Source: an uncultured Opitutales bacterium (GTDB lineage Bacteria > Verrucomicrobiota > Verrucomicrobiia > Opitutales > CAYWEO01). From it: DNA of 61,912 nt. Position numbers and translations under genes: made by a program. The notes beneath the pieces were generated by a model. The model did not search any database, was not told the origin of the DNA, and saw only the letters and a program-made list of their open reading frames with translations. The number at the start of each line of letters is the position of its first letter. Position 1 is the first letter of the stretch. The DNA is taken from contig CAYWEO010000006.1 of NCBI GenBank assembly GCA_964457855.1, forward strand, positions 1 to 61,912, in the 5' to 3' direction. Positions 2,653 through 61,065 of this stretch are shown piece after piece.

Positions 2653-3446
2653 ATCGCGATGGGGGCCCTGATGGCGGGTTGGGGGTTGTAGCCGACGATT
2701 TCGAAGTCCTCGAACACAAAATCATCGATGTTTTTGCGATTTGGGTTCAATTTTAATTTAGGCAGCTCGCGTGGCTGGCGTGAAAGTTGTTCGTTAACCG
2801 CTTCAATATGATTGAGATAGATGTGGGCATCCCCGAGCGTGTGGATGAATTCCTTCGGTTTGAGCCCGCAGACGTGCGCAATCATGGAAGTGAGGAGCGC
2901 GTAGGATGCAATGTTGAAGGGGACCCCGAGGAAGCAATCGGCGCTGCGTTGGTAAAGTTGGCAGCTGAGTTCTTTTTGCGTTGAAACGTAGAACTGGAAC
3001 AGCGCGTGGCAGGGGGGGAGGGCCATGCGAGGGATGTCGGTCGGATTCCACGCGGAAACGATGTGGCGGCGTCCAAAGGGGGCCTCGCGGATGCTTTTGA
3101 TCACCGCCGCGATTTGGTCGATGGCCTTCTCATCGTACGTTTGCCAGCGCCTCCACTGAGCTCCATAAACAGGGCCCAAATTCCCATCTTTATCGGCCCA
3201 CTCGTTCCAAATACTAACGCCATTTTCATTCAGGTACCGCACATTCGTATCGCCCTTAAGAAACCACAGCAGCTCGTGAAAAATCGACTTTATGTGCAGC
3301 TTTTTCGTCGTCAAAAGCGGAAAATACTCCCCAATCGGATAATGCGTCTGGACGCCAAACACGCCGATCGTCCCCGTTCCCGTGCGATCCGGACGTCGAT
3401 CGCCGTGTTCAAGAATGTGCTGTAGGAGTAGAAGGTAAGGTCTCAT
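2649..3446 (-). CDS. thyA: Thymidylate synthase (ThyA type)
   Basis: Carries the classic ThyA motifs DRTGTGT, LTTKK and the PPCH-type region [13 protein letters not shown]. The start was trimmed to the ATG at 3446 (MRPYLLL) because the longer ORF only reads through a repeat. Confidence 0.93.
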
Positions 3447-3476
3447 ATGTGAGGAGGGAAGGAGGGGATGGTTTTT

Positions 3477-3588
3477 CCGGAGAACCATTTTTTTGCAAAA
3501 AATTGGTTCTCCGGACCTCTCCAAAAAAAACTCTTATTCGAAAAGCATTTTTGCTGCAAGCAAAAATGCCTTTCGATATTTTTCCGAA
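3477..3588 (+). repeat. Tripartite hairpin mosaic, H1-H2 plus an H3 remnant
   Basis: H1 at 3477-3514 is CCGGAGAACCATTTTTTTGCAAAAAATTGGTTCTCCGG. H2 at 3538-3576 is TCGAAAAGCATTTTTGCTGCAAGCAAAAATGCCTTTCGA. A remnant TTTTTCCGAA follows. Confidence 0.85.
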
Positions 3589-3652: not shown

Positions 3653-3726
3653 GCGGGCGTAGTTTAATGGTAAAACGCCAGCCTTCCAAGCTGGACTCGT
3701 GGGTTCGATTCCCTCCGCCCGCACCA
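3653..3726 (+). tRNA. tRNA-Gly (anticodon UCC), CCA encoded
   Basis: The cloverleaf was folded by hand. The acceptor is GCGGGCG/CGCCCGC, the anticodon arm is CCAGC-CUUCCAA-GCUGG, the T loop is UUCGAUU, and the 3' end is ACCA. Confidence 0.9.
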
Positions 3727-8641: not shown

Positions 8642-9159
8642 TGAGAAAACGTCCAGGATTGAAGATGTTGGTAATTACGTTTGCGAATGTTTTACTCCTG
8701 CTGGGCATGAATTTGCTAAACAGTGTCTTGTGCATTCGTGGGAAACAACTCGAATGGTGCGGATTTTGCATCATTTTCCCGGCATTTTACCTCCCGATTG
8801 GTTGGGGTCTAACGAGTGTTGGATTATTAGGACTGCTGTTGGACGTTTTCAAAGACGATGCGTATGGAATTTCGGCAATCTTGTTGATGATCAATCTGTT
8901 AATGCTGTTTTCCGTTCGTTACAACTTTTATGACAAAAGCGATGCGCAGTGTCTTTTTTTAGGCTTCCTATTCAACGGCTTATGGATCATGCAGAGAGAC
9001 GTTGTTCAAATGCTCCTTGCGGGGAAATGGGGCCCTTGGGGGTATTTTTTGACCAACGCCGCTTTTTCGCAATGCGCCATGTTGTTGATCGGTTGGGCAT
9101 TTTTTAAGTTGCAGAGATATTATTTGCGCCTCATTTTAGGGACTTACTGGGATAGATAG
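8638..9159 (+). CDS. mreD: Rod shape-determining protein MreD (polytopic membrane protein)
   Basis: The ATG at 8638 overlaps the mreC stop (ATGA). The protein is small and hydrophobic, in the canonical mreBCD position. Confidence 0.65.
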   Translation: MMRKRPGLKMLVITFANVLLLLGMNLLNSVLCIRGKQLEWCGFCIIFPAFYLPIGWGLTSVGLLGLLLDVFKDDAYGISAILLMINLLMLFSVRYNFYDKSDAQCLFLGFLFNGLWIMQRDVVQMLLAGKWGPWGYFLTNAAFSQCAMLLIGWAFFKLQRYYLRLILGTYWDR

Positions 9160-9162
9160 GTA

Positions 9163-9332
9163 TTCGGAAACTTTTCTTTTCCAGAGAAAAGAAGAAGTTT
9201 CCGAACCTTCAAAAGAAAAGCATATCGGAAGGCATTTTTTAGGCACGTAGTGCCACAAAAATGCCTTCCGAACGAGAGTTTTTTCAGGGGAGGTCCGGAG
9301 GGGGTTGTTTTTGCAAAAAATACCCCCTCCGG
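9163..9332 (-). repeat. Complete tripartite hairpin mosaic (H3-H2-H1 on the + strand)
   Basis: H3 lies at 9163-9205, H2 at 9225-9271 and H1 at 9295-9332. It fills the mreD-mrdA spacer. Confidence 0.9.
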
Positions 9333-9369
9333 AAATTTAACAACTGCATAACCTACCCAGCCTACGACC

Positions 9370-14321: not shown

Positions 14322-15689
14322 ATGCAAGTGGAGGAATGCATGCAAAATCGTGAGGCTTTAGAGGCTTTTTTGTACAGTTTGAGGCATCTTGGGGGCAGAT
14401 GTGCGCTCGACGGCATGGAAAGGCTCATGCGAGCTTTAGGGGATCCGCAAAAGCGTTACTTGGCCATTCACGTTGCTGGGACGAATGGAAAGGGGTCTGT
14501 TTGCGCGTTTTTGGAGTCCATTTATCGCCATGCGAGTTATAAGGTGGGCATGTACACCTCTCCGCATCTTGTTGCTATAGAAGAACGGATTCAAGTTAAT
14601 CGCGAACTCATTCCATGGGAACGACTAGCGTTGTATTGCCAAAAAATACAAAAAACTGTGGACGAGAACGGTTTAGAGACCCCATCGTTTTTCGAGTGGA
14701 TGACGGCAATCGCGTTTTTATATTTTGCCGACGAAGCCGTTGATATAGCGATCATTGAGGTCGGGATTGGGGGGCGCTTGGATGCCACGAATATCCTGGA
14801 TCCGGCGATTTCAGTGATCACGTCCATCGGATTGGATCATGTGGAGCTTTTAGGAAACACGACACGGGAAATTGCTCAGGAAAAGGGTGGAATTATTAAA
14901 CCTTGGAAACCCGTCGTATTGGGCAACCTAGATGAGGAATCTGAGGGAGTCATTCGTAAAATGGCGCAATCAATCAAGAGCACTGTACACACTGTCTACG
15001 AACGCTTTGGAGATGATATCGACGATTATCCAGTCGCATCTTTAGAGGGTGACCACCAACGTGAAAATGCTGCTGTTGCGCGATTAACGTGCGAAGTTCT
15101 ACGCAATCAGGTGTTTATCGGTGACGATGCTATCGAAAATGGTCTGAAAAATACGCTTTGGGACGGTCGTTGGCAGAGAATTTCCCTAAAAAATTCCGTA
15201 AAACTCATTTTGGACGGAACACACAACGAGTTGGGAATGATCTACTTAGAGCAATTGCTTAAAAAATGGACAAAACACCATCACGAAAAGCTAGTCATTA
15301 TTGTAGGCGTCCTTGGCGAGTTTCGTGCAAAGAGTTTGATCCCAAAGTTAGCGAAATACGCCAATGAGTTCATCTTCGTGCAGCCTAACAGCGAAAAGGC
15401 CCTAGACGGCAGCGCCTTACGAACATTGATTCCTCCTTACTTTAAAGGCAACGTTCGCGACGGTAACGTCGCTGAATTGTTTTCATCAAAAGGCTTCTTA
15501 GCCAACCCACACGAACCCATAACCGTCCTCGTTACGGGGTCTCTCTATCTCGTTGGCGACGTATTGACGGCCTTGATTTTGAGCGGCGAGTTCGTTGCGC
15601 ATCGGATCTTGATGCCATCACGTTTCCGGGAAACCCCCTTTTTTATAAAAAAGGGGGTTTCCCGGACCCTTCCGCCAAAAAACTCTTAA
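14322..15689 (+). CDS. folC: Folylpolyglutamate synthase / dihydrofolate synthase
   Basis: Carries the Mur-ligase P-loop HVAGTNGKGS and the FolC end motif VTGSLYLVGDVL. About 36 extra C-terminal codons and the stop are encoded by repeats L4, H1 and the linker. Confidence 0.9.
   Translation: MQVEECMQNREALEAFLYSLRHLGGRCALDGMERLMRALGDPQKRYLAIHVAGTNGKGSVCAFLESIYRHASYKVGMYTSPHLVAIEERIQVNRELIPWERLALYCQKIQKTVDENGLETPSFFEWMTAIAFLYFADEAVDIAIIEVGIGGRLDATNILDPAISVITSIGLDHVELLGNTTREIAQEKGGIIKPWKPVVLGNLDEESEGVIRKMAQSIKSTVHTVYERFGDDIDDYPVASLEGDHQRENAAVARLTCEVLRNQVFIGDDAIENGLKNTLWDGRWQRISLKNSVKLILDGTHNELGMIYLEQLLKKWTKHHHEKLVIIVGVLGEFRAKSLIPKLAKYANEFIFVQPNSEKALDGSALRTLIPPYFKGNVRDGNVAELFSSKGFLANPHEPITVLVTGSLYLVGDVLTALILSGEFVAHRILMPSRFRETPFFIKKGVSRTLPPKNS
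15574..15621 (+). repeat. L element copy L4 (truncated; 5' half only)
   Basis: GATTTTGAG-CGG-CGAG-TTCGTT-GCGC-ATCGGATCTTGATGCC-ATCACG is then cut off by H1. Confidence 0.8.
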
Positions 15690-15798
15690 TTCGGAAGGCA
15701 TTTTTTGGCACTTAGTGCCAAAAAATGCCTTCCGATATGACTTTTCTTTGAAAGGTTCGGAAAACGTTTCTTTTCTTCTGAAAAGAAACGTTTTCCGA
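15625..15798 (+). repeat. Complete tripartite hairpin mosaic (H1-H2-H3), a near-canonical copy
   Basis: H1 lies at 15625-15664, H2 at 15690-15734 and H3 at 15755-15798. All three are near-perfect palindromes. Confidence 0.92.
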
Positions 15799-15817
15799 AT
15801 ATTCCTTCCTCCCCCAA

Positions 15818-16604: not shown

Positions 16605-16740
16605 CAGACAGTGCCGATTTTGAGATAACGAGCAGGCGCGTGATAATTTTAACCCCCGAGCGTACTGTAGTACGTGACGGGGTTGAAATTTGAGCGCAAC
16701 GAACTCGCCGCTCAAAATCGGCACTGTCTGGAGGCAAGGT
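16605..16740 (-). repeat. L element copy L5 (LB-type base, LA-type apex) with a perfect 20-bp outer stem
   Basis: CAGACAGTGCCGATTTTGAG pairs with CTCAAAATCGGCACTGTCTG. The basal loop is ATAA opposite CCG. An LC-like arm fragment lies at 16561-16582. The right arm supplies the last 5 codons and the stop of exbD. Confidence 0.88.
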
Positions 16741-20812: not shown

Positions 20813-22528
20813 ATGAAATGGGTTTGTCGGCAAGTTTCCGAGACGGCGGTTAAGGCTTTGCAAGAGGCTCTCTCGATTTCGGAGACCCTCGCGTGTCTCT
20901 TGGTCGAAAATTCGATTACGGATCCCGAGGAAGCCGCTTCATTTTTGAATCCCCGTTTGGCGTATTTAAAGGATCCCCTCATCATTCATGGCCTTTCGGA
21001 AGTCGTTGATCGCCTATTTCAGGCGCGCGAAAAGAAGGAAAAAGTCGTTGTTCTTGGCGATTATGACGTCGACGGTTTGACGAGCGTTGCGCTAATGACG
21101 CTTATTTTGCGCCAGCTGGACATCGATGTTACGTATTTTGTTCCCAATCGTTTTGATGACGGTTATGGCTTATCGCGCTCGGTTGTAGAGAAAATCCTTA
21201 AAGAAATGGTTCCCAACGTCTTCATTGCGCTGGATTGCGGGACGAATTCTTTGAGCGAAATCGAATTATTGCAACGTCACAATGTCGATGTCATTGTCGT
21301 CGATCATCATAGCAACAGTTGCGGAGAATTACCGAAGTGCTTGATAGTCAATCCACACGCGTATCCCGACATCGACACCGCAGATGCACGTAGATTGTGT
21401 TCCGTCGGTCTCGTGTTCAAGTTGGCTCATGGGATTTTAAAGAAGCTGAAAACGATCAACCCCGAGTTGGCTTATCGCATAAAATTGAGGGAATATTTGG
21501 ATCTCGTTGCCATGGGTACCGTTGCGGATCTCGTTCCCTTGCAAGGAGATAACAGGATTTTGACAAAGTTCGGCCTCGAGCTGCTTCCCGAAAGTCATTT
21601 GCCCGGCGTAAAAGCTCTCATCAAGGTGGCCGGTCTGCAGGACGGTCAGAAATTGATACCGGGCGACATTTCCTTTAAATTGGCGCCAAGAATCAACGTC
21701 AGCGGTCGGATTTCTGATGCGCATCTTCCGCTAAAAATGCTTCTGAGTGAGCAGTTTAGCGAAGCGTTTGGATGGGCTAAGGAGTTGGATATTTTGAACA
21801 AGAAGCGGCAATTCATTGAGCAGCAAATCGTTGAAGAAGCTTTGGGCATGATTGACCTGAAAGACATTCCCGCGGGTGTCGTTTTGTACTCGGAAAAATG
21901 GCATTCCGGCGTCGTAGGCATTGTTGCCGGCAAATTAGCCAAGCAATTCAACCGCCCAGTAGTCATTCTTGGCAGAGAGGGACACGTCGTCAAAGGGTCT
22001 GCGCGAGGGACCGGATTGTTCAATTTGGTCGGTATTTTGACCAAATGCAAGGATTTGCTCGAAACGTGGGGTGGGCATCCGCAAGCCGTTGGAGTGTCGC
22101 TACTTCCGGAGAATTTGGAGGCTTTTCGAGCGCAGTTCAGTCTCGCAGTCACCAAGCAGGGCGGTACTTCTGAACATACAGACATTGAGCTGCCGATTTC
22201 CCGCACGCTTTCTGTCGATGACGTTACCATGCAACTTTTCGACGAAATGGAAGTCATGCAACCCTTCGGCATTGGCAATCCGCAACCCGTTTTCGTCATT
22301 GAACACGTCATTTTACAGAAACCCGTCGAACTCTTCGGCGAAAATCGCGAACACGTCCGCTTTAAACTCAGCCTACCTGCAAGCGAATCCACTGGCGTCG
22401 TTGGCTGGAGGTTGCGTGACCCCTCCCTCCCCATCCACCAACCCGTCAGCCTAGCCGTCAAACTCTCCTGGAATTACTGGAACAGCCGCCGCTACCCGCA
22501 GCTAGAACTACTCGACTGGGCGCCGTAG
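20813..22528 (+). CDS. recJ: Single-stranded-DNA-specific exonuclease RecJ
   Basis: Carries the DHH motifs GDYDVDGLTS, DCG and VVDHH plus a DHHA1 region. The last three codons and the stop lie in the outer stem of L6. Confidence 0.9.
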   Translation: MKWVCRQVSETAVKALQEALSISETLACLLVENSITDPEEAASFLNPRLAYLKDPLIIHGLSEVVDRLFQAREKKEKVVVLGDYDVDGLTSVALMTLILRQLDIDVTYFVPNRFDDGYGLSRSVVEKILKEMVPNVFIALDCGTNSLSEIELLQRHNVDVIVVDHHSNSCGELPKCLIVNPHAYPDIDTADARRLCSVGLVFKLAHGILKKLKTINPELAYRIKLREYLDLVAMGTVADLVPLQGDNRILTKFGLELLPESHLPGVKALIKVAGLQDGQKLIPGDISFKLAPRINVSGRISDAHLPLKMLLSEQFSEAFGWAKELDILNKKRQFIEQQIVEEALGMIDLKDIPAGVVLYSEKWHSGVVGIVAGKLAKQFNRPVVILGREGHVVKGSARGTGLFNLVGILTKCKDLLETWGGHPQAVGVSLLPENLEAFRAQFSLAVTKQGGTSEHTDIELPISRTLSVDDVTMQLFDEMEVMQPFGIGNPQPVFVIEHVILQKPVELFGENREHVRFKLSLPASESTGVVGWRLRDPSLPIHQPVSLAVKLSWNYWNSRRYPQLELLDWAP

Positions 22529-22648
22529 TGATTTCGAGCGCTAGGGTTCCGTTACAAAAAGAATTTAATCCCATCACGTACTACAGTACGCTCAGGAATT
22601 AAATTTTTTTGTAGCCGTCCCTATCATCTCGAACTGACTACGGCGCCC
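22518..22648 (+). repeat. L element copy L6 (subfamily LA)
   Basis: Sequence by helix: GGGCGCCGTAGTGATTTCGAG-CGC-TAGGG-TTCCG-TTACA...CC-ATCA-CGTAC-TACA-GTACG-CTCA-GG...TGTAG-CCGT-CCCTA-TCAT-CTCGAACTGACTACGGCGCCC. Confidence 0.92.
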
Positions 22649-22676: not shown

Positions 22677-22783
22677 TAGGAAGGCATTTTGCGGGCACGA
22701 AGTGCCAAAAAATGCCTTCCGAATAAGAGTTTTTTTGGAAAGGGTCCGGGAAAACCAATTTTTGCAAAAAATGGTTTTCCCGG
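22677..22783 (-). repeat. Partial tripartite mosaic (H2-H1 on the + strand)
   Basis: H2 lies at 22677-22722, followed by the linker ATAAGAGTTTTTTTGGAAAGGGT and H1 at 22746-22783. Confidence 0.88.
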
Positions 22784-22811
22784 TTACAACTCTTATGTTA
22801 TACTACCGATC

Positions 22812-25253
22812 ATGTTAAGCAAAGCTTGGTGGACGGGGTGGGGTGGTGGGATGGTGTGTTTGGAGGCGGATTGTGAGGGGGCGTTGCCGTGTTTTTCGTT
22901 GGGGGATGGCGGTGAGGTGGTTGAGGTTAAGCGAGCGGATCCGTGGGAGTTTGGGGCGCATGGGGGGTGTTTTATTGAGGGTAAGGATGTTTATTTCACG
23001 CTGAGTCGTGGGAATTTCCCCGAGTTGGTGGGGATTTCGGGATCTGGGAATGAAGGGGATGCGGACGCGTTTTACGTGGCAGGAAATTTCAATGATTGGG
23101 GGGCAGCCGTTGGGAAAGGCGAATGGAGGTTGATGCCAAAGGAAGTCAATGGGCGGCAATATCTGGCGTTGCGTGTGCCGGTGGAAAATCTTTTAAAATT
23201 TGGCGATGGAGTGAATTTTAAATTCGTGTCTGAGAGGTATTGTTGGTTAAATGCTCCGGAGGGGGGGGCGAATGGCGTAGCAGATGGCTTGGGAGGTCGC
23301 AATTTTCATCTCAGTTTTCGAAGAAGCGGGCGTCATGCGTTCAAATTTGAGGTTCAGTCGCCCGTTGATATCTGGGCAGAGCAGCGGCTCGTTTTGCATA
23401 GGAATGATGGTATAACTGAGTCTTTAGTCATTGATTATGAGCGATTTTTGCTCTCATTGCGGTCGTCAAAGCCATTGGGAGCAATCGTTGAAGGAGATCA
23501 AACAACATTCCGGCTGTTTGCGCCGAGAGCGGAGCGGGTGGGCGTTGCAGTTTTTAAGGTAGCGGAAACGGAAAGCGACCGAATTGAACTTCCATTGCAG
23601 CGTTCCGAAGACGGTGTTTGGGAGGGAAAGTATCCCAAAAATCTTGACGGATTCCGCTATTATTACACTGTCACAAGTGCTTGCAAGGGAGTGGATTCGC
23701 ATTTTGATGATCGGGTGAAAATTCTGGATCCCTACGCCCTAGCAACCGTGAGCCGTGAGGGGCCTGGAATCATTTTGGATTCGAAAAAGTTCCAAAATTT
23801 TGAGCAAAACGATCCCTTCGTTTCGCCAGCCTTACAGGATCTGGTTATAATGGAGTGCCACGTGCGCGATTTGTTGAATAAAGTGCCGGATTTGGCCGAT
23901 TCTGAGCGCCTGGGGTTTGTGGGACTGACGCGCTGGTTACGGTCATCAAGTACTTGCTATCTTTCGAACCTGGGTATCAATGCCGTTGAGCTGCAGCCAC
24001 TTCAGGATTTTGACAGCGTCAGCAGGGACACATACCATTGGGGTTACATGCCGATCAATTACTTTTGTCCGGCAAGGGATTACGCGACGCAGCCCGAAAA
24101 AGTGTCGCAAATCGTTGAATTGCAAGACTGTGTGAAGGCCTTCCATGAGCGAGGAATCGCCGTGATCGTGGATGTCGTTTACAACCACGTTGGAGATCCC
24201 AAACCACTGTTATGCATCGATAAGCGGTACTATTTTCATTGCATGCCAGAGGGGAAATTGACGAATTGGAGTGGCTGCGGCAACGACTTACGGACGCAGT
24301 CCCCCATGGTGCGTCGGTTGATTTTGGATAGCCTCCTCTATTGGGTAAAAACATTCCATGTGGACGGATTTCGTTTCGATTTGGCAGAGCTTTTAGGGAA
24401 AGAGCTTTTGTGCGAGATCGAGCGCGAGTTGCGAAAAGTAAGGCCTGGGATCATTTTGATCGCCGAACCCTGGAGTTTTCGTGCACACATGGGGATTTCG
24501 TTAAAAGATACTGAATTTTCCGTTTGGAACGACGGCTATCGCGATTTTGTCGCTCAATATGTCTGCGAAAAAGGGAATTCTGCCGGAATCCAATACTTTT
24601 TAGGTGGTTCCATCAAGCACTTAACGCGTTTCCCGACCCAAACGATCAACTACACCGAATCGCACGATGACCGCTGCTGGATCGACAAAATGACCGAGCG
24701 CTCTCACAATCGTGGAGACGCCTGGACAAAGCTGGATCGCCAGCGTACACACCTCATGTTCTCGATTTTATTCGCGTCGCTCGGCATTCCCATGATCGCC
24801 GCTGGTCAAGATTTCCTCAAATCCAAACACGGTGTCTCCAATACCTACCAAAACGGTGCACTCAACGCGCTCGACTACCTGCAAATTTTCCAATGCCCCT
24901 CCACTCACGACTACGTAAAAAATTGGATCGCGTTCCGTAAGTCGCTAATAGGTGGTCTTTTGCGCCTAGACAAACGCCCTTCAGATGGCTACCTAACGTT
25001 CTTCGAAGTCCCCGGAAAATCCTCCATCGGCGCCCTCTTTAACGCCGATCACTCTCTCGGCCCCCAACAAATCCTTTACGCCGTCAACCCTCACCACCAG
25101 GCCGTCTCTCTCCACCTCCCCGGCATCAATCCCGCAAACTTCACCCAAATCGCTGACCACGAACACTTCTCTCCAACAACCCCCTTCCCCTGGACGGCAG
25201 GTGCGTTGCACCTGCCGCCCGTCTCCTGCGGCCTGTTGACAAGGGTTTTATAA
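22812..25253 (+). CDS. GH13 alpha-1,6-glucosidase (pullulanase or glycogen-debranching type)
   Basis: Carries the GH13 regions DVVYNHV, GFRFDLA, AEPW and YTESHDD. The start was trimmed to the ATG at 22812 because upstream codons only read through H2/H1. Confidence 0.85.
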   Translation: MLSKAWWTGWGGGMVCLEADCEGALPCFSLGDGGEVVEVKRADPWEFGAHGGCFIEGKDVYFTLSRGNFPELVGISGSGNEGDADAFYVAGNFNDWGAAVGKGEWRLMPKEVNGRQYLALRVPVENLLKFGDGVNFKFVSERYCWLNAPEGGANGVADGLGGRNFHLSFRRSGRHAFKFEVQSPVDIWAEQRLVLHRNDGITESLVIDYERFLLSLRSSKPLGAIVEGDQTTFRLFAPRAERVGVAVFKVAETESDRIELPLQRSEDGVWEGKYPKNLDGFRYYYTVTSACKGVDSHFDDRVKILDPYALATVSREGPGIILDSKKFQNFEQNDPFVSPALQDLVIMECHVRDLLNKVPDLADSERLGFVGLTRWLRSSSTCYLSNLGINAVELQPLQDFDSVSRDTYHWGYMPINYFCPARDYATQPEKVSQIVELQDCVKAFHERGIAVIVDVVYNHVGDPKPLLCIDKRYYFHCMPEGKLTNWSGCGNDLRTQSPMVRRLILDSLLYWVKTFHVDGFRFDLAELLGKELLCEIERELRKVRPGIILIAEPWSFRAHMGISLKDTEFSVWNDGYRDFVAQYVCEKGNSAGIQYFLGGSIKHLTRFPTQTINYTESHDDRCWIDKMTERSHNRGDAWTKLDRQRTHLMFSILFASLGIPMIAAGQDFLKSKHGVSNTYQNGALNALDYLQIFQCPSTHDYVKNWIAFRKSLIGGLLRLDKRPSDGYLTFFEVPGKSSIGALFNADHSLGPQQILYAVNPHHQAVSLHLPGINPANFTQIADHEHFSPTTPFPWTAGALHLPPVSCGLLTRVL

Positions 25254-25256
25254 ATA

Positions 25257-25452
25257 TTCGGAAACTTTTCTTTTCAGAAGAAAAGAAGAAGTTTCCGAAC
25301 CTTCAAAAGAAAAGTCATATCGGAAGGCATTTTTTGGCACTCCGTGCCATAAAAATGCCTTCCGAACGAGAGTTTTTAAGGGGGAGGCCCGGAGGGGGTG
25401 CTTTTTGCAAAAAACACCCCCTCAGGGAAAAAGCACTTTGGCCCCCCTCCGG
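25257..25452 (-). repeat. Complete tripartite mosaic (H3-H2-H1) plus an extra H1 arm fragment
   Basis: H3 lies at 25257-25299, H2 at 25320-25365 and H1 at 25389-25426. An additional CCCCCCTCCGG arm lies at 25442-25452. Confidence 0.9.
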
Positions 25453-37937: not shown

Positions 37938-38073
37938 CCACCCTAAAAACTCTTAAATGCGGAAGGCATTTTTGATTGGCACTATAGTGCCAATCAAAAA
38001 TGCCTTCCGATACCGCTTTTCTTTGGAGGGTTCGGGAACCTTTTCTGTTCTCGCGAACAGAAAGGTTCCCGAA
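37938..38073 (+). repeat. Partial tripartite mosaic (linker-H2-linker-H3)
   Basis: H2 at 37959-38010 has a 3-bp-longer inner stem, GATTGGCAC/GTGCCAATC. H3 lies at 38031-38073. Confidence 0.88.
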
Positions 38074-38089
38074 ATTCCCTCTCCCAAAA

Positions 38090-38522
38090 ATACTTTGAAG
38101 CAGTTATAAGCCGGATTCTGTATATCGTTTCTAACGCGATACTACGTCCATTTATCTAGCAAAAGTTGCCCTTTGCTCCCTTCCCTTTGGAGGGGTGCGG
38201 CGTACCCGAAATCGATGAGCGGGCCGCTCGATTCCCTATTTCGCCTTGCACCGGATTGGGTTTTCAATGCCTTTGCGATTACTCACAAAGCGGGGAGCTC
38301 TTACCTCTCCTTTTCACCTTTTCTTAACGTGTTGATTATCACTAACTAACGCGCAAAGTAGTTTATTTTCTGTTGCACTTTCCGTAACCTTGGGATATTG
38401 CCCAAAGTTCCCTCATTTTTCATGAGGAATCCTGCCCTGTGGTGTCCGGACTTTCCTCTATGTTTTAGATGTTCCTTGCGAAAAATCACCCAACACAGCG
38501 AACGCACACTGCTTCAAAGCAC
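38090..38522 (-). ncRNA. rnpB: RNase P RNA, bacterial type A
   Basis: The reverse strand carries GAGGAAAGUCCGGACACC, ACGGAAAGUGCAACAGAAAAUA, GGUAAGAGCUC, AGAUAAAUGG and ACAGAAUCCGGCUUAUAA. P1 is formed by CUUUGAAGCAG (38519-38509) pairing with CUGCUUCAAAG (38103-38093). The region is ORF-free. Confidence 0.9.
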
Positions 38523-39921: not shown

Positions 39922-39941
39922 GGTCCTACTTTAGTAAAAAT

Positions 39942-40057
39942 TGCGGAAACCATTTCTTTTCAGAAGAAAAGAAACGTGTTTCCGCGCCTTCCAAAGAAAA
40001 GTCGTATCAAAAGGCATCTTCATTTGGCCTTACAGGCCAAATGAAGATGCCTTTTGA
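39942..40057 (-). repeat. Partial tripartite mosaic (H3-linker-H2 on the + strand)
   Basis: H3 lies at 39942-39986. H2 at 40007-40057 has a divergent but self-complementary stem, AAAAGGCATCTTCATTTGGCC/GGCCAAATGAAGATGCCTTTT. Confidence 0.85.
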
Positions 40058-41581: not shown

Positions 41582-41605
41582 ATCATGAAATTTTTATATA
41601 AGCTA

Positions 41606-41773
41606 CCGGAGGGGGTATTTTTTGCAAAAACAACCCCCTCCGGACCTCCCCCGAAAAAACTCTCATTCGGAAGGCATTTTTTTGCCATGCTGGCGAAAAA
41701 ATGCCTTCCGATACCGCTTTTCTTTGGAGGGTTCGGGAACCTTTTGTTTTCATGGAAAACAAAGGTTCCCGAA
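41606..41773 (+). repeat. Complete tripartite mosaic (H1-H2-H3)
   Basis: H1 lies at 41606-41643, H2 at 41667-41711 and H3 at 41732-41773. The H2 loop contains the in-frame ATG at 41687. Confidence 0.9.
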
Positions 41774-43459
41774 TTATTTCTTCTCCTCCTGCCCTACCTT
41801 CTTCTAATTGCGTGGGTGGTTGTTGGTCTTACGGGGCATCATCCGTGGAAGCCGGACGAGGCATATACATTGGGGCTCGTGAATCACATCGCGAAGACGG
41901 GGGACTGGGTGGTGCCAACGCTTGCAGGGGAACCGTTTATGGAAAAACCTCCGTTGTTTTTTATGACTGCAGCGTTTTTCGCAAAAACGTTCTCGAAATG
42001 GTGTTTTTTTCATGATGCTGCGCGCTTGGCTGCTGGATTTTTTTCAAGTATTCTACTCATTGCGGTCGGATTGACAGCGAAGAAAATTTTTGGGAAGGGG
42101 AGGGCGCTTTTTGCCGCTCTGCTCTTGGCGGGGTGTCCGGCGGCCCTCGTCCACTGTCATCAGCTAATTACCGATGTTGCTCTGATTGCGGGAATTGCGA
42201 TCGCTCTCTACGGAGGGTGTTGTATCGCCGAGAAAGGGATGCGCGGGCCTTTTTTCTTGGGTTCTGGAGTCGGTATCGCCTTCTTATCCAAGGGGTTGCT
42301 GGCTCCAGGACTCCTGGGAATTACTTGCATAGCGCTCTTTCTGTTGCGTCCATACCGCTCAAAGCAATACGCAAAAAACCTGCTGTTTGCCGTTGTTTTT
42401 GCGCTCCCATGGCTGCTGATTTGGCCTTACGCGTTATATCAACGATCTCCGCAGCTCTTCCATGAATGGTTTTGGGTGCAGAACATTGGGCGTTACTTCG
42501 GTTTGATGACGGCGGTGTCTGCGATTAAAGACCCGTTTTTCTACAATTTGATCGGCTTGTGGCCCTTCTTCCCGGCGGTGGTCTGCGCGGCGGTGGTTTT
42601 TTGTAAACGGCATAAAAATATCCTGCAAAACGTTCCCATGCAATGGGTTCTAGGCTATTTTGTCGTCTGCCTAACGGTGTTGAGTCTGTCGAGACATGGA
42701 CGGCAATTGTATGCACTTCCCCTCGGGCTACCGCTTGCGATTTTGGGGAGTGAAGCGGCGTTTTGTTGTTTCGAACGTTTGAAAAAGTGGAGCGGTTTAT
42801 TTAAGTGTTTGATGATCAGCATCTTCGGAATCGTTGCGTTCGGAACCTGGCTGACTTGGATCGGCTGTCTCTTGGAGTGGCCTATCGCGTTTTTATTGGG
42901 ATTCCAGGAAACATTTGCGCCCGGTTATGTGTTCGAATTCGAGGGGTTGTTTGTGGGAACGGCGTTGTTTGTGACGATTTTATGGCTCATCATTAACCTA
43001 TTTTCCCGTCCCAACATTATCACAGCCTGGACGAGTGGCGTAACGTTGACGTGGTCCCTCGTCATGACACTTTGGCTGCCCTTCATCGACTACGGGAAGG
43101 GGTACAGCAGAGTGATGCCGGAAATGGCGACACATTTCCCGAAAAACACCCTCGTTATGAGCTACCGTTTGGGCGAACCGCAAAGGGCGCTTTTTGATTA
43201 TTATTGTCCGGGAAAATTGGCGCATCGCATCGAAAATCCGGCATTTTGGCAGCAATTACGGCCCGAATGGGGAAGTTTTTCGGGAAATGACCCCTTAAAA
43301 CGCTTTTTTCAGCTAAAAATGCCTCCGCACACGTGTTTGCTGATTCAAGGAGTTTGGCGGCATCCACCGGATTTCATGCCGGCTTTGTGGCGACTCATTT
43401 GGGAAGGAGCGAGACCGGCGGATGATGGCGAGCACTTTTGGCTGTTTGAGAAGATGTAG
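41687..43459 (+). CDS. GT39/GT83-type (ArnT/PMT-like) membrane glycosyltransferase
   Basis: Carries the DE motif and loop HHPWKPDEAYTLGLVNHIAKTGDWVVPTLAGEPFMEKPPLFF, followed by many TM segments. The start is uncertain: the in-frame ATGs at 41585 and 41687 both lie in or before the repeat, and the first start codon after the repeat (GTG at 41816) would truncate TM1. Confidence 0.75.
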   Translation: MLAKKCLPIPLFFGGFGNLLFSWKTKVPELFLLLLPYLLLIAWVVVGLTGHHPWKPDEAYTLGLVNHIAKTGDWVVPTLAGEPFMEKPPLFFMTAAFFAKTFSKWCFFHDAARLAAGFFSSILLIAVGLTAKKIFGKGRALFAALLLAGCPAALVHCHQLITDVALIAGIAIALYGGCCIAEKGMRGPFFLGSGVGIAFLSKGLLAPGLLGITCIALFLLRPYRSKQYAKNLLFAVVFALPWLLIWPYALYQRSPQLFHEWFWVQNIGRYFGLMTAVSAIKDPFFYNLIGLWPFFPAVVCAAVVFCKRHKNILQNVPMQWVLGYFVVCLTVLSLSRHGRQLYALPLGLPLAILGSEAAFCCFERLKKWSGLFKCLMISIFGIVAFGTWLTWIGCLLEWPIAFLLGFQETFAPGYVFEFEGLFVGTALFVTILWLIINLFSRPNIITAWTSGVTLTWSLVMTLWLPFIDYGKGYSRVMPEMATHFPKNTLVMSYRLGEPQRALFDYYCPGKLAHRIENPAFWQQLRPEWGSFSGNDPLKRFFQLKMPPHTCLLIQGVWRHPPDFMPALWRLIWEGARPADDGEHFWLFEKM

Positions 43460-51016: not shown

Positions 51017-51766
51017 TTATCGACGAGGAATGACCAACTGCTTGCCGATTTTCAGGCTGCTCGGGCTCGGAAGGACGTTGCGATTCGCTTGAAAAATATC
51101 CTTCCAGCGATGCGGCGTTCCATACACTTTTTCACTAATCCGCGAAAGTGTATCGCCTGCTTCGACAACGTACTTTGCTTCAACGTGATTTCTTACGCTC
51201 GTTTCGGACATGTTTTTTGGCAAACCGTAAGGCGCGCGAGAAGTTGTTCTCTGAGATGACGACGATGATTGCGATTGCTTTAAACGTTGTTGTAAATCAG
51301 CAACTTGCGCTTTCAACGATGTATTTTCGTCGCGAATTTGCTGGAGCGTCTGCACGAAATTCGCTTGTACTGCTGGATTGTCAGACAAAAGATTCCCTGG
51401 CAACTGCCGTAAGAAGGCTTTTTTCGCGGTTTCGATCATTTGAAAAACGGTTTTTACCTGCGGCGAATCGGGCAAAATCATGACGTATTGACGAAAATGA
51501 TAAATCGCCAAAATGGGGTCGTTGTAAACGCTGAGATAAAGTTGCCCTGCCTCTAAATGCGATTCTGGGGCAGAGTCACGCTTTGCGATGACCTTCAAAA
51601 ATGCTGACAAAGCGGCGTCATATTGGCCCTCTTTAATCAGTTGCTGTGCAGCGAGAAAGCGACTATCTTCCTTTTCGGCGATGCTTTTGAAATGTTTTGT
51701 TTCGCAACCACAAAGAGCGATCAGAAGAAAGCCGATAACAAAAAGCTTATGGAAAAGTTGATTCAT
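51017..51766 (-). CDS. Lipoprotein with a helical/TPR-like region and a C-terminal LysM domain
   Basis: Has the lipobox LIALCGC. The LysM segment is YVVEAGDTLSRISEKVYGTPHRWKDIFQANRNVLPSPSSLKIGKQLVIP. The start was trimmed because the longer ORF runs over the tRNA. Confidence 0.75.
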   Translation of the reverse strand: MNQLFHKLFVIGFLLIALCGCETKHFKSIAEKEDSRFLAAQQLIKEGQYDAALSAFLKVIAKRDSAPESHLEAGQLYLSVYNDPILAIYHFRQYVMILPDSPQVKTVFQMIETAKKAFLRQLPGNLLSDNPAVQANFVQTLQQIRDENTSLKAQVADLQQRLKQSQSSSSSQRTTSRAPYGLPKNMSETSVRNHVEAKYVVEAGDTLSRISEKVYGTPHRWKDIFQANRNVLPSPSSLKIGKQLVIPRR

Positions 51767-51819
51767 AAAAAACCACCGAAAAACCACCCAATCAAGGCAC
51801 TTTAAACCTATAATCGCAA

Positions 51820-51894
51820 TGGTACCCCCACGGAGAATCGAACTCCGATTTTCGGAATGAGAATCCGATGTCCTAACCGTTAGACGATGAGGGC
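51820..51894 (-). tRNA. tRNA-Glu (anticodon CUC), CCA encoded
   Basis: Hand-folded structure: GCCCUCA-UC-GUCU-AACGGUUA-GGAC-A-UCGGA-UUCUCAU-UCCGA-AAAU-CGGAG-UUCGAUU-CUCCG-UGGGGGU-A-CCA. Position 1-72 would be a G-U pair. Confidence 0.85.
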
Positions 51895-51996
51895 TCACCG
51901 TTTAATGAAGGTAAATCATCCATGATTTGTGAGCCCTTTGTCAAGGATTTATGATGGTTGTCATAAATTTTCCCCGCTGTGTTGGGTAGTTTTTTT

Positions 51997-52168
51997 CCGG
52001 GAAACCCCCTTTTTTATAAAAAAGGGGGTTTCCCGGACCCTTCCCCCTAAAAATTTTTATTCGGAAGGCATTTTTATGGCACGTAGTGCCAAAAAATGCC
52101 TTCCGATATGCTTTTCTTTTGAAGGTTCGGAAACTTCTTCTTTTCTCTGGAAAAGAAAAGTTTCCGAA
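51997..52168 (+). repeat. Complete tripartite mosaic (H1-H2-H3)
   Basis: H1 lies at 51997-52036, H2 at 52061-52106 and H3 at 52126-52168. Confidence 0.92.
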
Positions 52169-52186
52169 AAAATTCCCCCTCTCCTC

Positions 52187-52996: not shown

Positions 52997-53004
52997 GATA
53001 AAAT

Positions 53005-53136
53005 TTCGGGAACCTTTCTGTTCCGCGAACAGAAAAGGTTCCCGAACCCTCCAAAGAAAAGCGGTATCCCCCATAAAAATTTTTAGGGGGAAGGGTCCGT
53101 GAAACCCCCTTTTTTATAAAAAAGGGGGTTTCACGG
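53005..53136 (-). repeat. Tripartite mosaic lacking H2 (H3-linkers-H1 on the + strand)
   Basis: H3 lies at 53005-53046. Both linkers are present and directly abutting. H1 at 53097-53136 carries a compensatory pair, CCGTGAAA...TTTCACGG. Confidence 0.88.
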
Positions 53137-53147
53137 CTTTCCTTAAG

Positions 53148-54023
53148 TCATGGTTTCACCCACATCACATTATTTTTAAAGTCAAAAAATACTGGGTGTT
53201 CTTTGAAAAAGCTTGAGCCAATGAGTCCATCAAAGGGGAACTCACTTTTTTGAATAAAGAATTCGGTTTTTGGGAATGGTTGATCGCACACCGTGAAGGT
53301 AGTTGTTTCAAAGGATTGGTAGGGCGGATCGCCTTTAATCGTTGCAATTTTCCCCTCTGTGAGAACTTTTGCGGTTGATTTCATGATCGAGTGGTTCGCA
53401 CCCGTATCCCACACAAGTTTCGTAGTAACACCGTTAATGTTAGCGACGATAATTCCATCAGTAGACACAGGCATACGTATCCAGTTTTTGACATTGTATT
53501 GATGGGGATATGCGCCCAATGGTATTAAAATAGCCCGCGAGGATGGATAATCGACCAAAACATTGAACTGACGCAGAAAATCTAAACCGAGGACGCCATT
53601 TTTAGCGGCTTCGAACCAGATAAATCCTTCGTCGTAATGCCCTCCCCATAATTTGTCCATCAACTGACAGGGTATGTTGCGCAGAGTTTTATGACCGATT
53701 TTAAGCTCAGGAATTGTATAAACTTTGAGACAGGTTTCTTTGCCAGTATCGTCATGAAAACAAGCTTTTTCATTCGTAGGCAACAGCTTTAATTCTAACT
53801 TTTTTACAATTTCTTGACTCAAAGCAATTGATGTGCGGGATGCTCCATTATCAAATATAACAGGAATCGAATGCCCTTGAATTTCAATGGCTACCACCGG
53901 GAATCCTTGTTGCGACAGCTCGATCGGTAAAACGATTTCACCACGACTTCTCACCCGAGGCACAATGAAAATCCCAACCACCACCAGTAGTAAAAGGCTA
54001 ATAATAATTTGATGTTTTTTCAT
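53148..54023 (-). CDS. Membrane-anchored protein with two retropepsin-like aspartic protease lobes
   Basis: Has an N-terminal TM segment. Lobe 1 carries VIFDNGASRTSI and GVLGLDFLRQF. Lobe 2 carries LVWDTGANHSIM and GLIGSSFFKEH. Confidence 0.65.
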   Translation of the reverse strand: MKKHQIIISLLLLVVVGIFIVPRVRSRGEIVLPIELSQQGFPVVAIEIQGHSIPVIFDNGASRTSIALSQEIVKKLELKLLPTNEKACFHDDTGKETCLKVYTIPELKIGHKTLRNIPCQLMDKLWGGHYDEGFIWFEAAKNGVLGLDFLRQFNVLVDYPSSRAILIPLGAYPHQYNVKNWIRMPVSTDGIIVANINGVTTKLVWDTGANHSIMKSTAKVLTEGKIATIKGDPPYQSFETTTFTVCDQPFPKTEFFIQKSEFPFDGLIGSSFFKEHPVFFDFKNNVMWVKP

Positions 54024-54054
54024 AATAACATGCAGATATATTCGGAAGCTCTCA

Positions 54055-54894
54055 TCATAAACCCCCAAAGAACTTTAAGCTATTTCTCGTCACCTGCGAG
54101 CAAAAAGTGGCGTCGGTGGTGTTGAGGAATTTTGCGCAGAAGGTAGCCGTGTGGCGGAGGAAGGCGGGTCGGTTTTCTTGGCCACGGAGGGGCTCTGGGG
54201 ATAGGTAGGGAGCATCGGTTTCGATGAGGATGTTGTTGGGGTTAAGGATCTTAAGGGCCTCGCGGACGCTGTGGGCGTTTTTGAACGTAACGATGCCGCT
54301 GAAAGAAACTTTGGCGTTGCGTTCTTGGAGTTGTTTTGCATCGTCTGGGGAACCGGAAAAGCAGTGGAAGACAACGCGTTGCCAATCGAATCCAGTGGAT
54401 TCGATGACTTGAACGCAGTCTTTGAATAAATGTCTACAATGGACGATGATAGGCAGATTAAGTTCCCTGGCCAGAAGAAGTTGCTGTCGAAAGGATTCCA
54501 TACGCCAAATGAGGGTCTTTTCGGCTTCAATGGGATTGTTTGGTAGCTGAGTCGCATCAAGTCCTGTTTCGCCGATGGCCTTGATGGGAGATTTTCGAGC
54601 CAAAATGGAGAGCTCCTCGATCGCCTTTTCCCAATACGCATCGACTTCGCAGGGATGGAGTCCGAGAGTGCAGTGAATATTCGGCAATTTTGCTTCATTT
54701 TCAGAAGAAATTTCCTGACAATTCGGATTTTGCGCATTGGTTGCTAATTGCAAATGAATCGGCCAATCCGTCGGGTGCGTCCCAACCGTAACGATGTCGC
54801 TAACGCCATTCGCTGTCGCCTCCTTAAGGACCTCCCGCAAAGTCCCCTTGTGGACGTAGTGTTCTAAATGACAGTGGGTGTCGATGATAAGCAT
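54055..54894 (-). CDS. tatD: TatD family metal-dependent hydrolase/DNase
   Basis: Starts MLIIDTHCHL and carries the later motifs ETGLD, HCR, FHCFSG and ETDAPYL. The long ORF N-terminus was rejected because it covers only repeats and overlaps another gene. Confidence 0.9.
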   Translation of the reverse strand: MLIIDTHCHLEHYVHKGTLREVLKEATANGVSDIVTVGTHPTDWPIHLQLATNAQNPNCQEISSENEAKLPNIHCTLGLHPCEVDAYWEKAIEELSILARKSPIKAIGETGLDATQLPNNPIEAEKTLIWRMESFRQQLLLARELNLPIIVHCRHLFKDCVQVIESTGFDWQRVVFHCFSGSPDDAKQLQERNAKVSFSGIVTFKNAHSVREALKILNPNNILIETDAPYLSPEPLRGQENRPAFLRHTATFCAKFLNTTDATFCSQVTRNSLKFFGGL

Positions 54895-54942
54895 AAAACA
54901 AACGGTAATCGTAGGAGACGTTGGTAGTGGAGCAATTAAAAA

Positions 54943-55170
54943 TTCGGAAAACTTTCTTTTCAGAAGAAAAGAAACGTTTTCCGAACCTTTCAAAGAAAAG
55001 TCATATCGAAAGGCATTTTTGTTCGGACTTATGGTCCGAACAAAAATGCCTTTCGAATTGAGAGTTTTTAAGGGGGAGGTCCGGAGGGGGTGCTTTTTGC
55101 AAAAAACACCCCCTCCGGCAGGTAAGCACCCCGGGAAACCCACTTTTTTATAAAAAAGTGGGTTTCCCGG
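54943..55170 (-). repeat. Tripartite mosaic with duplicated H1 (H3-H2-H1b-H1a on the + strand)
   Basis: H3 lies at 54943-54985. H2 at 55006-55056 has the inner stem GTTCGGAC/GTCCGAAC. One H1 lies at 55081-55118 and a second H1 at 55131-55170. Confidence 0.9.
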
Positions 55171-56963: not shown

Positions 56964-56968
56964 TTTTT

Positions 56969-57142
56969 CCGGGAAACCCCCTTTTTTATAAAAAAGCGGG
57001 TTTCCCGGACCCTTCTCACTAAAAATTTTCGTTCGGAAGGCATTTTTTCAGCACGTAGTGCTAAAAAAATGCCTTCCGATACCGCTTTTCTTTTGAAGGT
57101 TCGGAAACTTTTTCTTTTCTCGTGAAAAGAAAAGTTTCCGAA
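56969..57142 (+). repeat. Complete tripartite mosaic (H1-H2-H3)
   Basis: H1 lies at 56969-57008, H2 at 57032-57079 and H3 at 57100-57142. Confidence 0.92.
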
Positions 57143-57162
57143 ATTATTTTATTTTATACCCC

Positions 57163-58043: not shown

Positions 58044-58070
58044 ATAATAGGCAAGTTAGGGTGGTGGTGA

Positions 58071-58238
58071 CCTGGAAAACCATTTTTTGCAAAAATTAGT
58101 TTTCCAGGGCCCTTTCCAAAAAAACTCTCGTTTCGGAAGGCATTTTTTGGCACGTAGTGCCAGAAAAATGCCTTCCGATATGCTTTTCTTTGAAGGGTCC
58201 GGGAAACTTTCTTTTCGAAGAAAAGAAAGTTTCCCGGA
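58071..58238 (+). repeat. Complete tripartite mosaic (H1-H2-H3) inside the atpD-atpC spacer
   Basis: H1 at 58071-58108 has CCTGG...CCAGG ends. H2 lies at 58132-58178 and H3 at 58198-58238. Confidence 0.9.
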
Positions 58239-58255
58239 AAAACATCCTCCTTATT

Positions 58256-59814: not shown

Positions 59815-59840
59815 TCGTAAGATTTGTTAAAAATAAGGTA

Positions 59841-59946
59841 TTGGAAGGCATTTTTGGGCCTGCAAGGCATAAAAATGCCTTCCGAATAAGAGTTTTTTTG
59901 GAAAGGGTCCGGGAAAACCAATTTTTGCAAAAAATGGTTTTTCCGG
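59841..59946 (-). repeat. Partial tripartite mosaic (H2-H1 on the + strand) in the atpG-atpD spacer
   Basis: H2 at 59841-59885 has a degenerate inner stem. It is followed by the linker ATAAGAGTTTTTTTGGAAAGGGT and H1 at 59909-59946. Confidence 0.85.
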
Positions 59947-59974
59947 TATCTCATCCACAAAATCATCTCTAAAA

Positions 59975-60865: not shown

Positions 60866-60873
60866 ATCGTTGT

Positions 60874-60993
60874 AAGCGCGTCGATTTTGAGCGGCGAGTT
60901 CGTTGCGCTCGGCCTCAATGCCATCACGTACGTTAGTACGCTCAGGCATCTCGTTCTCGCGCGCCTGCTCGTCATCTCAAAATCGAAGCGCTT
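60874..60993 (+). repeat. L element copy L10 (subfamily LB), 9 nt upstream of the atpG start
   Basis: It is almost identical to L9 in the core. The outer stem AAGCGCGTCGATTTTGAG pairs with CTCAAAATCGAAGCGCTT. Confidence 0.9.
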
Positions 60994-61017
60994 CCTCGTT
61001 AAAAAATTGAAAATTTT

Positions 61018-61053
61018 GGAAAACTTTATCTTTGTAAAGAATGGGTTTCCCGG
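61018..61053. repeat. Degenerate solitary H1-like hairpin
   Basis: GGAAAACTTTATCTTTGTAAAGAATGGGTTTCCCGG is an imperfect palindrome with an H1-type 3' arm. Confidence 0.5.
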
Positions 61054-61065
61054 AACTTGAGCGAC

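Follow-up and report, generated by a model that had tools for sequence, protein, structure and literature searches.

The window analysed here, which is the whole 61,912-nucleotide (nt) stretch of contig CAYWEO010000006.1, carries a family of long hairpins, 120–150 nt in size and designated the L element, of which 11 copies lie in 62 kb, in both orientations, flanked by unrelated housekeeping genes. The copy at positions 22518–22648, named L6, overlaps the end of recJ and is the one from which this study starts. A first-pass annotation of this DNA had listed eleven positions of the repeat, and an element is found at every one of them, ten being full copies and one truncated.

Copies and architecture of the L element

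A covariance model (R1) trained on the ten full window copies scores them at 92–122 bits and, with its filters off, finds no further true L copy in the window, the other matches being generic hairpins of other repeat families. An exact-motif search for solitary half-sites flanking a window gene gave matches solely inside the known copies. The strand given in the following list is the better-folding strand (B strand), which is the reverse complement of the one drawn in the first-pass annotation; the drawn orientation lies on the + strand in seven of the eleven copies and on the − strand in four.

1899–2045, − strand: L1, subfamily LC, inside the 3' arm of another repeat family's hairpin; R1 score 92.0 bits
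11310–11436, − strand: L2, subfamily LA; 114.0 bits
11524–11667, + strand: L3, subfamily LC, lying some 100 nt from L2 in the opposite orientation; 91.9 bits
15566–15623, − strand: L4, truncated; 5' half on the + strand, stopping in the apical stem where another repeat family starts
15576–15585: exact 3' (B-strand) motif of L4, CGCTCAAAAT
16605–16730, + strand: L5, subfamily LB, between exbD and a − strand open reading frame (ORF) of 237 aa; 114.2 bits
22509–22657, − strand: L6; core 22521–22646; 122.3 bits
37788–37936, − strand: L7, subfamily LA, its 22-bp outer stem leading into TTTT; 110.5 bits
40130–40267, + strand: L8, subfamily LA, in the divergent xseA/dus spacer; 106.9 bits
59693–59814, − strand: L9, subfamily LB, in the atpG–atpD spacer, 10 nt upstream of the atpD start codon; 102.2 bits
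60873–60994, − strand: L10, subfamily LB, in the atpA–atpG spacer; 103.0 bits
61066–61216, + strand: L11, subfamily LB with an extra side hairpin, beginning 1–4 nt past the atpA stop codon and inverted relative to L10; 100.4 bits

Within L6, the parts of the hairpin are placed as follows.

22509 and 22657: positions reached by the outer stem P0, on the basis of extended pairing
22531–22541, + strand: 5' side of helix P1, ATTTCGAG, then the conserved CG(C); the partners are TCAT (22624–22627) and CTCGAA (22628–22633)
22573–22594, + strand: apex, consisting of loop ATCA, stem CGTAC, tetraloop TACA, stem GTACG and loop CTCA

On the drawn strand, the P1 helix (TTCGAG/CTCGAA or TTTGAG/CTCAAA), the asymmetric loop of CGN opposite TCAT and the P2 variants were described correctly by the first-pass annotation. 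Two apical features ascribed to all copies are less general, as the 4 × 4 loop of ATCA opposite CTCA is present in most copies and missing from the LC copies (1899 and 11524), while the stems CGTAC, CGCAT and CGTAT are all found but one LC copy has an apical loop of 7 nt in place of the tetraloop. Read on the B strand, the positions above P1 in L6 form the arrangement GAG-A-UG/CG-CUC, in which an A is bulged out and a U.G wobble and then a G-C pair come next, and the 4 × 4 loop becomes UGAG/UGAU (tandem G.A).

Some copies are closely related, with the arms of L6 and L8 being 97% complementary across 77 nt, and L9 and L10 sharing 93% identity with their outer-stem differences compensated. L1 and L3 are nested in the arm of a repeat hairpin of the other family and have homologous flanks, the composite having been duplicated. 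Beyond its conserved part, the outer stem consists of copy-specific sequence that is still self-complementary.

Occurrence in other genomes

A search of 185,579 species genomes with an exact pattern of conserved positions in the loop and P1 gave five single matches, of which three carry the label Candidatus Lloydbacteria or Harrisonbacteria and the other two only 'bacterium'. A pattern scan of metagenomes gave one contig. The protein PGK adjoining one of these foreign copies has its relatives in Harrisonbacteria/Patescibacteria, and the PilC adjoining another has its relatives in Lloydbacteria, both belonging to the Candidate Phyla Radiation (CPR). The foreign copies keep the architecture, with helix sequences that are almost wholly different, and other CPR sites of the element are pheS–pheT, rpmA–pgk, upstream of map, and nusA–ppa. 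The family is not local to the three subfamilies seen earlier in the window, as it spans two phyla, Verrucomicrobiota and Patescibacteria. Contigs and loci outside the window carry the labels L001–L020 and are distinct from the window copies L1–L11. Two pattern scans of viral contigs were empty save for L009, which the covariance model rejected, and an origin from phages was discarded on this ground.

Two adjacent copies form a tandem in L006 (2337–2588). In L011 (a Logan contig, 1–106), the short-read assembly of the Harrisonbacteria locus reaches only about 20 nt into the L hairpin before it stops, a hint that L palindromes fragment assemblies.

Fold and covariation

The sequence 22518–22648 folds at −62.8 kcal/mol, compared with −28.0 ± 3.3 kcal/mol in 200 shuffles (z = −10.55), none of which folds as well. 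Over the ten window copies, paired cells amount to 86.2% (73.5% after shuffling) and both sides have changed in 26 of the 52 pairs; four of the five covariation measures are reached by 0 of 500 shuffles, while the fifth, the number of further pair types, is reached by 193 of the 500 and does not exceed chance. Controls slid out of register give 0.07–0.10 against 0.388. Among the seven foreign copies (six contigs, aligned by the model), paired cells reach 83.1% against 63.5% after shuffling, both sides have changed in 33 of 51 pairs, and further pair types number 65 against 40.8 ± 3.8, with no shuffle attaining any of the measures.

A third alignment, meant to avoid fitting by structure, comprises 29 copies from both phyla, whose basal part (12 nt of outer stem, 8 nt of P1 and the first loop) was cut out by sequence anchors and in which MAFFT introduced no gaps. 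Here paired cells account for 84.4% (60.6% shuffled), 21 of the 23 pairs have changed on both sides, all five measures stand at 0 of 500 shuffles, and slid controls give 0.10–0.16 against 0.622. P1 itself covaries (GAG/CUC, GGG/CCC, UCG/CGA and flipped A/U tracts), although P1 and the inner positions of the outer stem are not fully independent of the test because the choice of anchors used a pairing score. The secondary structure of L is under selection, as is seen in the window, foreign and 29-copy sets alike, which bears out the earlier proposal of compensated helix changes around fixed loops. The worry attached to that proposal, namely that three founder subfamilies alone might drive the signal, is removed by independent copies from other genomes. 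As had also been noted, sequence does not separate a folded RNA from a folded single-stranded DNA.

Invariant core and strand asymmetry

Directly above P1, the B strand has an unpaired A in 29 of 29 copies, a U.G wobble in 29 of 29 and a G-C pair in 28 of 29, and the pairs neighbouring the bulged A and the U.G covary while this motif stays fixed. Two further zones are semi-conserved, an irregular GGC/GYAACG zone and an apical GUAY-loop-RUAC stem, the latter being kept in CPR copies.

These fixed irregularities bear on the view that L is a passive palindrome without any recognising factor, kept self-complementary and lengthened outward by intramolecular template switching during replication (quasipalindrome correction), and duplicated by recombination. 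Such a process would account for outer stems that differ from copy to copy and yet pair with themselves, in L6 even with native recJ codons in the stem, and for compensation between copies as alike as 93%. However, correction would erase asymmetric loops, and 29 copies from two phyla agree in the bulged A, the U.G, the AACG zone and the GUAY stem at the apex whereas their surroundings change, so that a purely passive palindrome is regarded as improbable.

The two strands of the element are not equivalent. On the strand drawn in the first-pass annotation, whose structure stands, the core positions read as a bulged U and a C.A mismatch, and the better-folding, wobble-bearing strand is its reverse complement. 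Of 26 copies, 24 fold better on the B strand, comprising 15 of the 17 first examined and all nine further CPR copies. The mean advantage of the B strand over the first 17 is −7.1 kcal/mol with RNA parameters (Wilcoxon p = 8e-5) and −3.3 kcal/mol with DNA parameters (p = 0.001), and in the nine further copies it amounts to 4–25 kcal/mol, with 45 against 18 G.U pairs.

An invariant wobble and tandem G.A pairs are typical of functional RNAs, and the copies might on this account be independent small-RNA genes transcribed off the B strand. This is highly unlikely, as L fills the pheS–pheT and pilB–pilC spacers fully and leaves no room for a promoter or terminator, no conserved promoter-like sequence was seen in the flanks or the element on reading the sequences, and there would be eleven such genes in 62 kb.

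Genes at the L copies of the window

Judged by protein similarity, the window organism is a verrucomicrobium of Puniceicoccales/Opitutales-like affinity, its AtpG being 55–60% identical to proteins of Puniceicoccales, Opitutales and Lentimonas with no closer database entry. The scanned ORFs are housekeeping genes including atp, mreBC, PBP2, mur, secDF, recJ, accBC, xseA, dus and ruvC. L9–L11 sit inside the atp operon, where the atpA–atpG spacer measures about 355 nt and the atpG–atpD spacer 291 nt. The nearest relatives are without L and have only 3 and 9 nt at these junctions. A pre-existing hairpin in these spacers was rejected, since 3–9 nt are too short to have held one, and insertion into the loops of pre-existing hairpins was likewise rejected as a general rule, the LC copies occupying the arm of their host hairpin.

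Several copies reach into coding sequence. The 5' arm of the L6 outer stem (+ strand) includes the last recJ codons with the TAG stop at 22526–22528, and the homology of the window RecJ with solved RecJ structures extends to residue D568; a direct look-up of this recJ product gave no database record. The exbD stop codon lies within P1 of L5. L4 is located within an extended Mur-ligase ORF (14322–15689) that reaches 455 aa and whose last Pfam domain stops at residue 388, so the truncated L4 and the next repeat appear to encode a C-terminal extension of this enzyme. The database call of atpG (59975–60949, − strand, 324 aa) starts inside L10, while homologues have 291–299 aa and their alignment begins about 30 codons downstream of the called start; L10 has probably misled the calling of the start codon, with about 30 codons borrowed from the repeat. 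A transposase between the convergent L4 and L5 was also considered and rejected, as the 237-aa ORF there is without Pfam match, has an N-terminal hydrophobic stretch and contains nothing transposase-like.

The pil locus of Lloydbacteria

Diverged copies in the pil locus of Lloydbacteria, found by the model with filters off, occupy five sites.

S0: after pilM
S1: after an mshE-like ATPase gene
S2: between pilB and pilC
S3: after pilC
S4: before ligA

All 19 copies of this locus are gene-sense, that is, the strand of the first-pass drawing is in the mRNA, and the foot of the hairpin lies −11 to +3 nt from the last base of the upstream stop codon. S2 is filled in L004, L014, L015 and L020 and empty (18–28 nt) in L012, L016, L018 and L019, so that the element is polymorphic for insertion or loss. 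In L013 the site holds another hairpin of 100 nt (3204–3303) made of repeated GTAG/CTAC-rich units, which makes the pilB–pilC junction a hotspot for more than one hairpin family. An assembly with an empty S2 has L elsewhere (L001 and L012 come from one assembly), and some empty sites may be losses instead of ancestral states because the L004 and L020 copies are alike in the outer stem. A candidate target-site duplication at pilB/pilC, AATGA, was dropped, being absent from the orthologous L020 copy. Degenerate partial copies follow the S2 copy in L020 (5609–5990).

At S3, only the motif positions are common between strains with 98% identical PilC, and the stems are largely different at 94% PilC identity. 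This divergence is far beyond drift by point mutation and indicates replacement. Orthologous pairs that can still be aligned show two compensated pairs, one broken double change, nine single changes that keep the pair through a B-strand wobble and seven that break it, a small sample whose weak signal is suggestive of compensatory evolution in place. The first-pass interpretation is to be amended on this point, in that L acts in CPR genomes as an old resident of gene ends and as an insertion alike. Some 300 nt of non-coding sequence downstream of the S3 copy are also conserved (L004 7100–7400, L013 4700–4960, L014 1720–1940); they include TTCGAGCGAAAGGTGCTTTTTCAAAAACCTC and CGTTATCCACAG.GGGCC.CCAC, match nothing in Rfam and may form another structured element.

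The regular placement after stop codons speaks for a reading of L as a cis-acting RNA module of gene ends, whose sense hairpin would be bound at its fixed loops to terminate, process or protect the transcript, the copies having spread as a useful module or the element having been domesticated after invasion. Besides the uniform sense orientation and the tight distance to the stop codon in the pil locus, it would explain that S1, S3 and S4 are filled in all Lloydbacteria examined, at PilC identities of 73 to 98%, despite the streamlining of CPR genomes, that orthologous copies change in place in a compensated or wobble-preserving manner, that the loop motifs are conserved across phyla, and that, all loci taken together, gene-sense copies outnumber antisense ones by roughly 15 to 4. 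However, the sense strand is the worse-folding one in 24 of the 26 copies, since the wobbles of the antisense strand are A.C mismatches in the mRNA (for example, seven against none in the S3 copy of L012), and no consistent U-tract is found 3' of the hairpin. Three or four window copies are antisense, two of them in the atp operon, and Rfam gives no match. Mobility also accounts better than a fixed function for the presence or absence at S2 and for the exchange of the whole element at S3 between near-identical strains. A role as a gene-end RNA is on these grounds the main alternative to the reading favoured below, although we consider it less likely than not.

Origin of the L element

The reading that we favour, and to which we give an even chance, is that L is a REPIN- or MITE-like (miniature inverted-repeat transposable element) non-autonomous element, recognised as a folded single strand and mobilised in trans. 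A non-coding DNA palindrome of 100–150 nt would enter short spacers at gene boundaries, and a structure-specific enzyme acting in trans and encoded outside the window would multiply, remove and replace it. This putative enzyme, dedicated to the element and possibly HUH/RAYT-like, would read the folded B strand in a single-stranded DNA intermediate, with the bulged A, the U.G (T.G) wobble and the G-C pair above P1 as predicted determinants of recognition, to which the GGC/GYAACG zone and the apical GUAY..RUAC stem may be added. The helices would drift by compensated changes because they need only pair. As the stronger hairpin is that of the B strand, an insertion may be better tolerated when the mRNA receives the weaker strand, which would explain the gene-sense bias.

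Many contexts, both orientations, near-identical copies, truncation, nesting, expanded spacers and turnover together indicate a family that is gaining, losing and replacing copies, and that has undergone a burst in the window genome. The patchy distribution over two phyla, the stems that covary round fixed bulges and a strand asymmetry that is independent of the direction of transcription point to a folded single strand, read at its irregular positions, on which propagation or retention depends. REP and REPIN sequences show such behaviour with their RAYT transposase, and attC sites of integrons and the ends of IS200/IS605 elements resemble them in this.

Several observations weigh against mobility of this kind. 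Terminal inverted repeats accompanied by a target-site duplication are lacking, and no transposase, HUH protein, recombinase or reverse transcriptase was found by Pfam among window ORFs of at least 90 aa, nor in the CPR loci inspected. Systems of repetitive extragenic palindromic (REP) sequences with their RAYT are normally lineage-specific, while the L motif is common to two phyla. The constant occupancy of S1, S3 and S4, always against a stop codon and in one orientation, would suit an element kept for its function better than a parasite of a streamlined genome. Finally, the excess of G.U over A.C at the variable pairs of the B strand is modest (38 against 27), so that part of the asymmetry is owed to the conserved wobbles and the tandem G.A loop; this modest excess leaves room for strand-biased C-to-T mutation pressure as its source, the more so as GC skews in the CPR loci are uninformative on the direction of replication. 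The HUH-type mobilisation suggested in the first-pass annotation thus holds as an analogy, with no such gene in the Pfam scan of the window and few of the defining features of REP and IS200 systems recognised in L.

More speculatively, L may belong to an undescribed system of Verrucomicrobiota and Patescibacteria, in which a conserved factor would read the bulged-A/U.G (T.G) motif and the apical GUAY stem of a folded single strand sited at stop codons. The copies would then be either a new family of single-strand hairpin sites for recombination or transposition, comparable to attC or REP but with an enzyme of their own, or a 'punctuation' RNA of gene ends in streamlined genomes that escaped and was amplified in the verrucomicrobium. 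We put this forward as a tentative proposal, and a rather unlikely one as it stands.

If L is mobile, a motif common to a verrucomicrobium and CPR bacteria implies horizontal spread of a structure-specific enzyme or the use of a universal host enzyme, and the ultra-small CPR genomes would tolerate or use such elements at many gene ends. To our knowledge, the boundaries of transcription units in Patescibacteria are essentially uncharacterised, and should L have a function at gene ends, this group would gain its first intergenic punctuation signal defined by sequence. In either case, L appears to break assemblies, as in the Logan contig, and to mislead gene callers, as in atpG and the Mur-ligase ORF.

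Other features of the window

The window contains a second and commoner mosaic repeat system, consisting of three linked hairpins round GGAAGGCATTTTT...AAAAATGCCTTCC, in which the arms of distant copies are up to 100% complementary. Most of the larger spacers between genes are filled by it, with L copies interspersed, and the intergenic DNA of the contig is largely made of nested hairpin repeats. The positions of this system and of the remaining features are listed below.

2044–2188, 3475–3580, 9157–9340, 15623–15801, 22687–22786, 25251–25430, 37941–38076 and 39938–40050: mosaic repeat, part 1
41600–41780, 51994–52170, 53000–53136, 54937–55170, 56966–57145, 58065–58240, 59828–59949 and 61014–61054: mosaic repeat, part 2
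3653–3726, + strand: tRNA-Gly(UCC)
38091–38517, − strand: bacterial class A RNase P RNA, 218.9 bits
51820–51894, − strand: tRNA-Glu(CUC)
53148–54068, − strand: ORF of 306 aa, retropepsin-like aspartyl-protease (gag-asp_proteas, Asp_protease_2 and weak RVP), among housekeeping genes

The ORF at 51017–51898 is probably spurious because it overlaps tRNA-Glu.

Comparison with known systems

In line with the earlier remark that the repeat belongs to no known family, Rfam 15 gives no match to L, even at E ≤ 10. At the gathering score, the 4227 Rfam families yield only RNase P and the two tRNAs in the window; at E ≤ 10, L6 and L9–L11 give solely sub-threshold matches to hairpins of the miRNA-precursor type, and nine CPR loci give one tRNA only. 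Full-text searches on intergenic hairpin repeats of CPR bacteria or Verrucomicrobia gave no description of the element. Among structured RNAs, a K-turn or box C/D-like (TIGR-type) motif, in which tandem sheared G.A pairs come after a 3-nt bulge, was rejected, because the UGAG/UGAU loop is symmetric, without bulge and missing from most CPR copies. By eye, the conserved positions also do not fit hairpin-ribozyme loops, group II intron domain V, the 11-nt tetraloop receptor, loop E, or SRP and 6S RNA, most of whose candidate features are missing from CPR copies.

Models for a hairpin role at gene ends are provided by REP stabilisers and by the intercistronic RNase III sites of phage T7, which are repeated hairpins with conserved internal loops, in sense orientation, just past stop codons. 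The T7 hairpins are much shorter and confined to one phage genome, and L, unlike these, folds better antisense. An intrinsic terminator needs a U-run, whereas a T-run follows only L7, L8 and L11 in the window and none of the CPR copies inspected.

The better-folding strand being antisense to the genes, L also recalls the attC sites of integrons, and it may be asked whether it is an attC-like site of integron-like cassettes, whose folded 'bottom' strand would be recombined by a tyrosine recombinase. In both, structure is conserved over sequence, unpaired bases define the antisense strand (the active one in attC) and the size is similar; the architecture is parallel, in that a conserved outer helix is succeeded by an unpaired spacer and by a short variable helix carrying extrahelical bases, with a terminal arm that varies over 60–140 nt, and in Lloydbacteria genes and L copies alternate (gene-L-gene-L) in one orientation. 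However, L has no RYYYAAC/GTTRRRY core, its P1 being ATTTYGAG/CTCRAAAT or covarying variants in place of R''/R' boxes, and its complementarity runs past the conserved helix, by 8–22 bp further out. Its neighbours are housekeeping genes and operons (atp, pheST, pil, recJ, mur) and not promoterless cassettes beside intI, no integrase was seen in the Pfam scan of the window, and the window copies lie in both orientations. An attC-like nature is therefore very improbable.

Of the mobile elements, those of the IS200/IS605 type and PATE have separate left-end and right-end subterminal hairpins shared with a tnpA/tnpB element, whereas L is one continuous hairpin, and the window contains no tnpA or tnpB. 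Classical MITEs have terminal inverted repeats matching an insertion sequence and a target-site duplication; L is without both, its ends being copy-specific and its internal loops conserved, and no direct repeat flanks the copies consistently. The hairpin-forming bacterial MITEs ERIC/IRU, Correia/CREE, RUP and the Rickettsia RPE, from which L differs in the same respects, are like L imperfect palindromes of 100–160 nt at gene boundaries. ERIC-type MITEs are co-transcribed with their neighbours in either orientation and, like L4, L5 and L6, can supply stop codons or C-terminal extensions.

The closest likeness is to REP and REPIN sequences. The ends of REPIN hairpins are conserved, and the spacer between them often shows compensatory changes (PMC3116915); L likewise consists of non-coding intergenic hairpins within their range of about 70–150 nt, with conserved ends and a middle kept paired by compensation. 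The REP of E. coli needs a conserved mismatch bulge, which TnpAREP recognises strand-specifically as single-stranded DNA (PMC8266576), and the conserved mismatches and bulges of L may serve such single-strand recognition as well. Both are clustered into repeat mosaics, sited after genes and persistent in their lineages over long times. Opitutus terrae, another member of the Verrucomicrobia, is rich in GTAG REPs (PMC3733652). REP palindromes have a conserved GTAG (or CGTC) tag at the foot, and in L the sequence CGTAG/CTACG is present in the four LA copies and L3 and absent from LB, L1 and the CPR copies read. In contrast, the REP unit is itself palindromic, while the halves of L form only weak copy-specific pairings of 3–5 bp that, by inspection, are not kept in CPR copies; and REP–RAYT systems have a cognate single-copy RAYT (Y1 HUH) flanked by repeats, none of which was found by Pfam among window ORFs of at least 90 aa. 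Compared in this way, L most resembles the REP/REPIN type and would be a previously uncatalogued member of the bacterial intergenic palindromic repeats, distinguished by a recognition motif common to two phyla, by conserved internal irregularities instead of conserved termini, and by its placement at stop codons.

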